Source: Laetmonice hystrix (lineage: Eukaryota). Taken from it: 64,000 bases of DNA. The translations under genes were made by a program, and so were the position numbers. The stretch is from the NCBI GenBank assembly GCA_965235115.1, contig OZ249436.1, positions 30,382,001-30,446,000 of the forward strand, in the 5' to 3' direction. Shown here piece by piece: positions 43,023 through 47,300 of this stretch (positions are counted from its first letter, which is position 1; every line of letters starts with the position of its first letter). The notes beneath the pieces are model-generated. The model was not told where the DNA came from, searched no databases, and saw nothing but the letters and a program-made list of their open reading frames with translations.

Positions 43023-44272
43023 ATGGATGGTATTCTTGACTGGATTGATCAAGAGCTCGTTAACATGAGCAGCAGCACCGATATCCAGGTAAACTCATTG
43101 ACTTTTCTTATTTAAAACGGTTACACCCACCCACCCACACACACCCACACCCACACACGCACCCACACACACCCACCCACACCCCCACACGTAAGCCTAT
43201 GGCTGTATGTGCTATCAAGGTCTGTAATGGAGCGCTACTAGGGTAGTGTGATGGAGGACGTGTTAGGGTCAAGTGGGGGTCAAGTAAGGTCAGTGACGGA
43301 GTCGTTGGCGTGACGACAGGTGGGCAGGCTAGGTCTTTTACTTACGCTTGTGCGTTCAGAGCATAGCAGATATGTGATAATCTCTAAATCTCTAACTGTC
43401 TGCTCAACCTTCATTTGATTTGACTTTCAGAACTTTGATCCAGCAGAGGTGGCAGCTTTGCTGGACACTATAGACTGGGGGGCGGAGGCACCCGACACTC
43501 CGGTAAGGATGGTAGTCCACACATAGAATGGATATCCAGCTCTTGTTGGAAATAATGGAATTATTGAGTTTTACAAACATTTGTTTGCACAGACTTACAT
43601 CTATGCATTCTTTGTTTCGGAGTTTATTGTTACAAACACGTGATTGTTTCAGACTGATCCGACTCCGATCGATCATGGCGCCTCATTTTCTGACAACTTA
43701 AATGAGGCGCCAAACAATACAACCGTCGATATTGATATCGATGCACTTGTCGAGGGAGTCGATTGGGACTCGGACTTCGAACAGGAGAAAGAGCAGGAGG
43801 TATTAGTTATATTAGTTTTTCTATCAATTTTATTATTATTATTTTCGCTATTTAACTATTTTCGCTGACAAGCCATAGTTTTAAACTCTACCTTGAGGTG
43901 TTTATTGACGTGCGTGCACCGTCGTTTCAGAACGATATCGATATCGAGGCCTTAGTCGAGGGAGTTGATTGGGACTCGGAATTTGACCAAGAGAAGGAGG
44001 AAGAGGTATTAGTTATATTAGTTTTTCTATCAATTTTATTATTATAATTTTCGCTATTTAACTATTCTCGCTGTGACAAGCCATAGTTTTAAACTCTACC
44101 TTGAGGTGTTTATTGACTTGCGTGCACCATCGTTTCAGAACGATATCGATATCGTTGAGGAGGTGAGTTGGGACGCTGAATTTCGGCAGGAGGAAAAAGA
44201 TGCAACAATGACGGTGGAGGAGACAAGCAAGGCGGTGGAGGAGGTGAAAAGCATGCAGGAGGAGAAGGTACT

Positions 44273-44308
<36 letters not shown>

Positions 44309-47300
44309 GAACAAGAAGAAGAAGATGAAGAAGACGACGAATATTAAATAAGACATTAAATTAAAAACATGAAATTATTCAAGTAAAATGAATTTAAATT
44401 GTTTCAGACAACACGGAAAAGGAAGCCAGACTGCGAGTCTGACAGACAACATCCTCCTCCTAAACGAGCCAAGAGCATCTTGGAACGGTTGCTAAGAGGA
44501 GAAGACCTGGTAAGGACCACTTTACTTTATAAGTAATACTTAAGGATTACTTTATTCATTCATTCATTCATTCATTCATTCATCCATTCATCTTTTTTTT
44601 TATTTTACCTCATTTGATTTTTTTTTTCTCTCCACGACAGTTGATTATGTCTCCAGGACCCTCGACGCTGTCTCCCGTGACTGGCCCTTCGGCTGGGTCC
44701 CCTCAGTCGGGATACTCGGTGGAGTCTTCCGTACCGGGACCTTCGGGATGGTCTCCCGAAGGTCCCGGTACAGGAAACTCAACATTCGAGGTAAAAACAG
44801 TCTCAAGTTGTGTTACGTGGTACGTCTTACGCCTTACGTCACCACTTTTCTTTCTTCATAATAGTAATGATAATAAAAATTGAAATAAATAAATAAATAA
44901 TAATAAATACGTGAAATACTCAATATATTTCGCCTGTGTAAATAGGTTGTGTTTTATCCCTTGTTCCAGCCGATGACCCTCCCCTATGTCGCTGGTTTCT
45001 CGGGAACCGATGAGGACAGCGATGATGCTGATACCATGGTATTTATTTATTTATTTATTTTTTTATTTATTTATTTATTTATACTTCACTTACATTATTG
45101 TACATTGCGATAAAGAAGACGCAGTAATAAAGACACGCTGTTTACAATTCGTGTGCATTCGTTTCTTACAGGAGCCATACACATTGAGGCAGCGGAGCAC
45201 CCGGACTTTCAAGTGTAACGGTGCGCGGGACACAACCTATGAAGTTAAAATAAATCAAGCGCATATGCAAGGTCGTAAACCGTCTGAGGTGCACCGTTCC
45301 CTACGCAATGTGTTTGGCGACATGGTGTCAGAAGCTGCCGACCATCTTAAAGGTACGGACCTTATTCGCATTGTAATCCACCATCCTAGTTTGGACAGTC
45401 CAATCGTTGTACCCCTTCGCCCCATAGAAAGGTTGGAGATCGAAGACATCCATGACACCGTCGAAAATGTCGAGAACAGTGAAAAAGATTTGGCAATCGA
45501 CGAAAATTTTAGAGTGGACATCGGCACAATAGAAATGCCCATAGGTGGTTACGGTGATCGGATGCAGCTCACCCAGTTATCGGGCGAGGACAATTCTATT
45601 CACAGAAAGAGGTCTCTGGTAGAAATTGTTAATGCCGATCACCTTTGTCTTGCCCGCGCCATAGGTGTATCGTGGACCAAAGCCCACGTTGTGTCCCCGC
45701 AAGTATGGGGAGTCTTGACACGCGGATTGACCACCCGAGACACGCTAAACATTATGTTAAGGTATAATCAGGTCCCTCAGTGGTATTACCAAAATGTTAA
45801 ACGCAGCGATAGGAGGGATCAAGAAAAGCTGGCAAGAAAGATATGTGGAATGGCGGGGGTGTCCACCGATGGACCTGCATGTCTCAATGACATCTCCAAA
45901 TTTGAGCAGGTCCTCGGTGTGGACATCTTTGTCCTCAGCGCTCGTCTGGGGAACCAATTTCTCCGCATACCCCCACAACAAGAAAAGCAGCCTTTAACGC
46001 CATCAACCAAAAAACGGCTGTATTTGTATTTTGTCGATGACGTTGAAGGGGAGGGTCACTTTCACTCCATTGCAAACATTGCAGGCTTTTTCTGCCACTC
46101 CTATTTCTGCGAGGCCTGTCTCAAGCCCTACCAGAATAGAGAAAGGCATTCGTGCCTCACCACCTGCAATGTTTGCAAGTCCACACGGTGTCCACAGACC
46201 GACAGTACAGTGGTTTGTCAAGATTGTAACATGACGTGTAGGAGTGAGGCCTGTTTTGCCCGACACAAGAAAATTCCCCAAACAAAAAAAAGAAACCCCC
46301 AAAAGAATACTGAAATCTCTCAATGTCAACGCTGGTGGCGTTGTGTTTCTTGCAAGGCCGTCGTTGATCGGCAGAAGCGACACGTTGCTAAACACAAATG
46401 TGGGGAATGGTTTTGCCGCACCTGTAACCAGTACGTTTCGGGGGACCACCTGTGTTTCCACCGTGCCCTTCCGCCGAACAAGGACCTGACCAAGGCAAAA
46501 TTTATGTTTTTCGATTTTGAGTGTCGTCAAGACAGTGTTTTTGAGTGTTCTGGAGGTTATTCCCGGAAAAAGCTTTTGTGCACTGGTTGTGTGGGTAAGC
46601 GGGAATTGTGTGCCACATGTCGGACTTGCCAAAACTGTCAGGATCCCTCCTGTGGCAGAAACTTTCACGTACCAAATTATATCGTAATCCAGAAGACGTG
46701 TCACGCGTGTCAAAACTCCCCGATCAGTGAGGCATGCGAGATCTGCGGCGATCGGTGTAGTCAGTGCAACAAGTGGGATAGGGAATCTCAGTCGTTTGCT
46801 GGTCTTCCATGTGATGGATGTGGTGTTCGACAGCGCATTTTTGAGGGTGATACCACAGCTCACAGTTTTGGAGAGTATGTGTTTAACGTTCAGCACAGGG
46901 GGTTCACTCTCCTAGCCCACAACATGCGTGGTTATGACGGATATTTCGTTCTGGAATATCTAATTAGCCAATCCATTCGACCCGATTCCCTAATTTATAA
47001 CGGTTCAAAAATAATGTACATGTCTGTGGGCAAAGGGTTGAACATCAGGATCCTAGATTCCTTAAATTATTTCCCGATGAAGCTTTCTGCTCTACCAAAA
47101 GCTTTTGATTTAGCTGAGCTAAAGAAGGGTCATTTTCCTCACCTGTTTAACAGAGTGGAAAACCAACACTATGTGGGCAACTATCCTGACATTGAAGATT
47201 ACGGAGTTGCCCACATGTCGTCAAAAGAGAGAGGCGAGTTTCTAGGATGGCATGCTCAGCAGAGCGGCCGAGTTTTTGATTTCAGAAAAGAAATGAAAGA

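Follow-up and report, generated by a model that had tools for sequence, protein, structure and literature searches.

Eight predicted coding introns in an acidic arm ahead of the terminal-protein domain of a Polinton polymerase from Laetmonice hystrix

The stretch of DNA analysed here (the window) comprises 64,000 nucleotides (nt) of Laetmonice hystrix (assembly GCA_965235115.1, contig OZ249436.1, positions 30,382,001 to 30,446,000 of the forward strand); all positions are counted from its first letter. It holds a Polinton/Maverick element whose DNA polymerase (pPolB, protein-primed and of family B) is very probably encoded by a spliced gene. Eight small exons, all joined through phase-0 introns, lead in frame into the main polymerase open reading frame (ORF) at 45172 (EPYTLR) and supply 270 amino acids (aa), 25% of them D or E, ahead of the terminal-protein (TP) domain (Table 1). 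These exons had been described in an earlier reading of the letters (the original prediction), and were found at exactly the lengths and positions given there. Maverick core genes are called intronless in the available parts of two reports (Barreat and Katzourakis 2021, PMC8097293; Widen et al. 2022, 10.1101/2022.07.12.499685); the nine introns predicted in this pPolB from sequence only, eight coding and one in the leader, do not fit that description. What stands out is how many introns interrupt a gene of a type that is normally reported without any, and the remark in the original prediction that the gene is unusually intron-rich is borne out.

The gene model is carried by its splice signals. 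All nine acceptors end in CAG and every donor reads GTA. A consensus-based, frame-blind splice scan, with thresholds fixed before the first run and with host flanks and the polymerase ORF as controls, gave seven acceptors above threshold in 42900-45160, each at the start of a described exon. The first good donor after the acceptor closed an open frame of a multiple of three in 7/7 cases, against 11/188 in the controls (Fisher p 2e-8), and none of 1000 local shuffles of the region gave more than three phase-0 open exons. A chance pattern of ORFs was rejected on these results. The acceptor of exon 7 fell under the threshold, and exon 5 was called with an inner donor (105 nt). Seven of the eight exons are open solely in the described frame, exon 7 being open in two. 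GC content is 0.45-0.60 in the exons and 0.19-0.35 in seven of the eight coding introns, six of which measure 131-150 nt; the outlying introns are intron 1 (342 nt, GC 0.49) and intron 7 (179 nt). All six simple-repeat runs in 42001-45172 are intronic, and the YLFIYLFF at the apparent start of the polymerase ORF is translated ATTT repeat of intron 8, as originally stated.

Exons 2-5 are mutually similar, copies of one repeat, and by this likeness are products of tandem duplication. Of 72 sites compared between the tail of exon 3 and exon 4, 13 differ, and 11 of these differences are at codon position 3 (p 2e-4; this test omits the non-homologous first codon, with which the figures are 11/15 and p 0.002), and the resulting amino acid changes are exchanges among D, E and Q. 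The third-position bias argues independently for the described reading frame of these exons; splice scan and codon pattern together support the predicted splicing of an acidic coding extension in frame to the TP-vOTU-polymerase. A uniform phase 0 in eight coding introns has a probability of 0.004-0.008, assuming that phase 0 makes up half of all introns. Part of this uniformity is explained by the duplication itself, since an exon copied together with its intron survives only if the exons are symmetric. The improbability of eight out of eight, together with two inner in-phase donors in exon 5, makes regulated skipping possible; for the wording "freely skippable" in the original prediction, the intron phases are the sole ground. 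One contig of the sample searched for splice joints joins 43768 to 44237, so repeat number varies at the DNA level too. The contigs of this sample (three runs) behaved as DNA, and no GT-AG joint was present among the 4 joints listed, a result that is silent on expression.

A ninth intron, missed by the original prediction, is likely in the 5'-untranslated region of pPolB, because the ATG at 43023 lies directly after a strong acceptor and a TATA box and a consensus donor are found upstream. Once the leader is spliced, this ATG would have a purine at position -3 and G at +4. Transcription would start downstream of the TATA box at 42027.

Relatives were taken from 82 loci (2 viral ones and 80 retained from 448 metagenome loci) obtained by alignment search; a single-protein search of viral contigs gave no match. 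An ATG-led open arm of at least 80 aa ahead of TP was present in 19 of the 46 loci assessable at the TP start. Eighteen of these arms (L032 left out) measure 88-450 aa and are 4-26% acidic. An acceptor lies at most 20 nt before the arm ATG in 7/18 (background 0.068, p 1e-4), so a leader intron seems common among relatives. Judged from these loci, the arm ahead of TP is a family trait: the "gain" of an extension by pPolB, as originally proposed, is not supported, as an arm stands in the corresponding position in relatives, where it is mostly a single open frame. Tandem acidic-W repeats occur in the arms of L006, P0005 and P0017, and a C2H2 pattern in 6 of 40 arms (29 loci, 10 proteins and the window). 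Zinc-finger arrays of the C2H2 type form the arms of L022, L033, L038, L041 and L082; residues 7-35 of P0017 resemble a WW domain (Pfam E 1e-4, under cut-off) and are followed by its acidic-W repeats. A search with exon 3 among longer proteins scored none of four candidates, and an Atlas search with the Ruditapes arm gave 0.78 at best and no lead.

Introns in other arms are fewer. The arm of L039 has one (117 nt, phase 2, GC 0.19); that of L042 has three in phase 1, with symmetric inner exons; acceptor-like sequence stands just ahead of TP in L052, L055 and the P0003 cluster. Eight coding introns are the highest count seen, the upstream DNA having been inspected by eye in eight loci. On a quick tree (L061 dropped as too short; intron labels of P0003 and P0013 taken from translated acceptor-like sequence only) the intron-bearing rows are scattered and do not cluster (148 of 500 shuffles gave a value as low). 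The outgroups with DNA are mostly uninterrupted, and intron gain in the window lineage would be the simpler reading. Two relatives may use another device: L042 (5335-5341) and L060 (2287-2293) have in common TTTTTTA at a frame break before TP, their upstream frames being open for 488 and 689 codons, respectively, and both ending 37 nt past TTTTTTA. Downstream of it, L042 has a hairpin (-21.7 kcal/mol for 70 nt) and L060 weak structure only. TTTTTTA is a candidate site of -1 ribosomal frameshifting, which would join a long arm to pPolB.

All motifs named in the original prediction (D-W repeats, nuclear localization signal (NLS), SILERLL, PGPS) are present. The RKRK-x12-KRAK of exon 6 agrees with the bipartite NLS consensus. 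Exons 2-5 have net charges of -6 to -14 together with W, F and aliphatic residues, which is the composition of acidic activators; an "acidic activation or host-binding" role of the arm, as originally suggested, is put forward here as a hypothesis. Pfam contains no family matching exons 3, 5, 6 or 7. The best-supported specific lead is host binding through GPS motifs, which the original prediction had listed and left uninterpreted. The pattern [PAE]GPS occurs in 16 of the 40 arms (15 of 39 relatives), against 0.5 expected from shuffles, and is absent from the 1419-aa polymerase body; it recurs in the arm of L014, at about 27% identity, and several relatives without it have PSTS instead. Tested sites for binding to the TRAF pocket of USP7 include AGPS, EGPS and PSTS, in the available part of PMC6203733, and the P/A/ExxS form of such ligands is found twice in exon 7 as PGPS. 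With the ligands described in that source (EGPS of EBNA1 and vIRF, AGPS of USP11, PSTS of Hdm2), exon 7 shares an xGPS-type motif in a predicted disordered region; it differs in that its binding is predicted from the four-residue motif.

The domains that follow the arm fit a known order. The structure model was built from 26 aligned sequences, a single-sequence fold being poor (pLDDT 38). Residues 18-124 of the TP domain align with Pol IV (4ir1; VIA-align Z 6.5, root-mean-square deviation (rmsd) 3.1, 93 aligned). Foldseek gave only weak OTU rows (best E 3e-3). Among 20 sequences, the catalytic C159 of the vOTU domain is nearly invariant and H296 invariant; an N-terminal OTU with catalytic Cys and His, together with pfam03175, characterizes the Alpha-type adintovirus PolB, and the PF03175 match with the TP fold marks the protein-primed family B polymerase of Polintons/Mavericks. 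A Z of 6.5 for TP is middling alone, but the TP-vOTU order modelled here agrees with Krupovic et al. 2024 (PMC11161782, main text). A little-finger TP, a vOTU with Cys/His and then the polymerase are common to both; two globular N-terminal domains with no arm before TP are described there, and the word "intron" is absent from that main text. Krupovic et al. also proposed cleavage between TP and vOTU. If vOTU cuts there, the arm would stay on TP, and thus at the 5' termini of the linear DNA after its excision.

We regard the following explanation as probable, with some reserve: the arm would be a spliced, disordered docking strip on TP, serving nuclear import and the binding of host factors. 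Transcription would proceed from the TATA box, the leader intron would be removed, and the host spliceosome would join the eight exons to the TP domain. The 270-residue arm, predicted to be disordered, would dock host proteins: the basic motif of exon 6 would mediate nuclear import, the GPS motifs of exon 7 would bind the TRAF pocket of the host deubiquitinase USP7, and the acidic D-W repeats would contact basic or hydrophobic partners. The window lineage would probably have gained introns in an arm already present in the family, and multiplied them by tandem duplication of exon plus intron, which favours symmetric exons.

Several observations weigh against this explanation. Between introns 3 and 4, 5 of 131 aligned sites differ (and there is a 2-nt indel), a lower share than between the exon repeats (13/72; p 0.001). 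The original prediction would have been contradicted by exons no more conserved than introns; for this duplicated pair the introns are indeed the more alike, yet the codon pattern shows that the exons are coding, and the excess likeness could reflect recent gene conversion or a constrained intron element. No sequence homology of the window exons to other arms was found with single-exon phmmer and tblastn against the relatives, so the arms may be analogous. The tree is a quick one, and the fork at which the window stands on it, in a clade of 31 rows containing both states, is open. In a comparison of copies, for which 40 of 143 differences were listed (24 in the region; some rows for exon 4 may be cross-laid repeats), 21 of the 24 are exonic and 5 of the 21 synonymous, about the neutral expectation; one creates a stop, in a copy from which 516 nt are also deleted; and in exon 6 codon position 1 accounts for six of the eight listed changes, though stops interrupt both other frames of this exon and the two changes within SILERLL are synonymous. 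Most GPS carriers belong to a single clade, so that the 40 arms are no independent sample and the count overstates independence; other motifs are weakly enriched (acidic-W 11/40 against 5.0, basic 15 against 8.5, LxxLL 5 against 2.2). In USP11 the PGPS copy is a minor site and AGPS the major one (PMC6203733, available part). Finally, the polymerase frame is already open from 44977, with four ATGs in 44986-45025, which makes an unspliced start formally possible.

That open frame speaks for the view that the exons form a short transcript of their own, or a fragment captured from the host; the polymerase would then begin at 45265 or, with intron 8 left in, at one of the ATGs in 44986-45025. Intron-bearing cargo genes beside intronless core genes are known in nematode Mavericks (10.1101/2022.07.12.499685, available part). 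Against this, the splice sites of exon 8 and intron 8 are good, the exon chain has neither a stop nor a poly(A) end to itself, the open stretch consists of ATTT repeat, starting at 45265 would cost the TP fold its first two strands, and the arms of relatives are in frame with TP; we think the view very improbable. Still harder to credit is an origin of the introns as copies of an introner inserted after integration. Introns 3 and 4 are near-identical, and introners occur in Polinton-like proviruses of dinoflagellates (10.1101/2025.03.18.643946, available part), which share with the window spliceosomal introns inside a Polinton-like element; the window introns differ in not forming one repeat family. 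Among 36 pairs of introns a clear similarity is seen in one only, which occupies matching positions of the tandem repeat, and an introner origin was rejected.

Two further explanations accept splicing and differ on the use of the arm. One takes the D-W repeats as an acidic activation domain on the genome ends, with phase-0 symmetry kept for regulated skipping that would tune the number of repeats or remove the NLS. The charge and the W, F and aliphatic residues of exons 2-5, the uniform phase of all eight coding introns, the inner in-phase donors of exon 5 and the symmetric exons of L042 would suit it. Part of the symmetry follows from tandem duplication without regulation, however, repeat number varies in DNA as well, and many arms of relatives are intron-free, some being of the zinc-finger type or non-acidic; we consider this explanation unlikely. 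The other takes the arm as a mostly tolerant spacer that grows by duplication and in which only the NLS matters. The wide span of arm lengths without common sequence and the near-neutral differences among copies speak for a spacer; the excess of third-position changes in the repeats, whose amino acid exchanges are confined to D/E/Q, the GPS motif far above chance in arms as distant as that of L014, and the two synonymous changes in SILERLL speak against it, and we hold it to be somewhat less likely again. The docking arm is the preferred explanation.

Adenoviruses descend from polintons, and a spliced polymerase gene would, like those of adenoviruses, be transcribed in the nucleus by Pol II and rely on the host spliceosome. 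In the adenovirus E2B mRNA for pTP, TP is likewise completed by splicing of an upstream exon (in HAdV-37 a predicted 9-nt exon; PMC2397415, available part); one exon of three codons is involved there, against eight exons and 270 aa, with TP fused to the polymerase, in the window. With animal Polintons/Mavericks and the Alpha-type adintovirus PolB (PMC8502044, available part) the element shares TIRs (terminal inverted repeats), a 6-bp target duplication, an OTU-bearing pPolB, an rve integrase with chromodomain and a packaging ATPase; it differs in the eight predicted coding introns and leader intron of pPolB, and in that no adenain-like gene was detected. In the literature searched, neither a multi-exon polymerase of an animal Polinton nor an arm preceding TP was reported, but such gene models may stand in Repbase, subscription papers and supplements, which lay outside the search; "splic" does not occur in the available text of the adintovirus paper (Starrett et al. 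2021, PMC8502044), and the available parts of PMC10748475 and PMC11071296 have nothing on spliced polymerases.

Annotation treats Polinton core genes as plain ORFs, and they are said to lack introns. In many records the polymerase is therefore likely to have a truncated or mis-called N-terminus, and an element that is intact but has a spliced start may be counted as broken. A variable arm with a recurrent USP7-type motif would offer a first testable contact point between Polintons and host proteins. It is conceivable, though we think it doubtful, that animal Polintons in general carry on their excised DNA ends a fast-evolving arm that recruits importin, USP7 and the transcription machinery, joined to the polymerase as one open frame, through one or many introns or by a -1 frameshift according to lineage, and that the window element tunes its arm by alternative splicing of symmetric exons.

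Table 1 Features of the pPolB gene and of the Polinton/Maverick element (positions in the window).
Feature	Position	Strand	Remarks
TATA box and non-coding first exon (predicted)	TATA 42027; exon ~42058-42156	+	ATG-free, ~99 nt; ends at donor AAG|GTAAGT
Leader intron (predicted)	42157..43022	+	866 nt; ends TTACAG immediately before ATG
Coding exon 1	43023..43088	+	66 nt, 22 aa; begins ATG
Coding exon 2	43431..43502	+	72 nt, 24 aa; acidic D-W repeat copy
Coding exon 3	43653..43799	+	147 nt, 49 aa; repeat LVEGVDWDSDF
Intron 3	43800..43930	+	~95% identical to intron 4 (44006-44138)
Coding exon 4	43931..44005	+	75 nt, 25 aa; duplicate of exon 3 tail
Coding exon 5	44139..44267	+	129 nt, 43 aa; inner in-phase donors at 44163 (GAG|GTGAGT) and 44244
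Coding exon 6	44408..44509	+	102 nt, 34 aa; RKRK-x12-KRAK bipartite NLS-like motif, LERLL
Coding exon 7	44641..44790	+	150 nt, 50 aa, 68% P/S/T/G; PGPS twice, TGPS once
Coding exon 8	44970..45038	+	69 nt, 23 aa; acidic
Main pPolB exon	45172..49431	+	1419 aa, uninterrupted; Pfam PF03175 E 3e-46
TP domain, little-finger/PAD fold	45172..45546	+	first domain of main exon; model pLDDT 81
vOTU protease domain	45577..46092	+	Cys159, His296; VIA-align Z 9.6, rmsd 3.7, 133 aligned to 8cmr
Polinton/Maverick element, whole	37851..56726	.	18,876 bp; ends AGTAGT...ACTACT; 6-bp target duplication GCTCTG
Left TIR	37851..38684	+	one 113-nt unit longer than right TIR
Right TIR	56006..56726	-	
Left-end gene, family unknown	38804-39887	+	predicted 115-nt phase-2 GT-AG intron (39100-39214) joins two ORFs in frame
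Antisense ORF within leader intron	42246..42830	-	Cys-rich LRRNT-like cap, one leucine-rich repeat (LRR), LRRCT-like part, one transmembrane segment
Probable major capsid protein ORF	49969..51366	-	465 aa; 20 ORF matches in related loci
Integrase, rve with C-terminal chromodomain	52146..53312	-	Pfam rve E 9e-11, Chromo E 5e-9
Packaging ATPase (Pox_A32)	53997..54797	-	Pfam 25 bits, cut-off 22.8
RLIG1-type RNA ligase	54833-55930	-	Pfam PF17720 E 4e-102

The element is intact, with matching TIRs (99% complementary over 575 nt) and a target duplication. Together with the retroviral-like integrase and the packaging ATPase these are the hallmarks of a Polinton/Maverick; the closest named polymerases are molluscan (Mya, Ruditapes, Gigantopelta; 45-49% identity). 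The predicted phase-2 intron of the left-end gene would indicate that splicing is not confined to the polymerase arm. About 2 kb further on (39900-42020) hold no convincing ORF; a consensus donor stands at 41176 (CAG|GTAAGC), and a small spliced gene may be hidden there.

The antisense ORF in the leader intron possibly encodes a captured host-type surface protein. Its Pfam match to LRR_1 (E 0.01) is under the cut-off, its transmembrane segment was assigned by hydropathy, and in the Atlas it scored 0.92-0.94 to LRRNT/GPIX/GPIb-beta-like clusters; none of 293 candidates passed as a sequence relative.

The 465-aa ORF, probably the major capsid protein gene, matched no Pfam capsid family. Four tandem ORFs resembling it are present in the related element L014 (7484-12702, minus strand). 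No ORF of the element matched the ORFs of the 82 loci, adenain-like ones included, as an adenain-like protease at E 1e-4, a threshold that a divergent or spliced gene could escape. In L006 an adenain-like gene follows the capsid gene; in the window an inverted capsid module meets the polymerase head to head (49431-49969). The RNA ligase has no match among the ORFs of the 82 loci. Tandem units of 56/57 nt lie inside the TIRs, at 38052-38538 and 56007-56525, and in the host flank (15375-15766) there is an array of ~113-nt units with strong internal inverted repeats.

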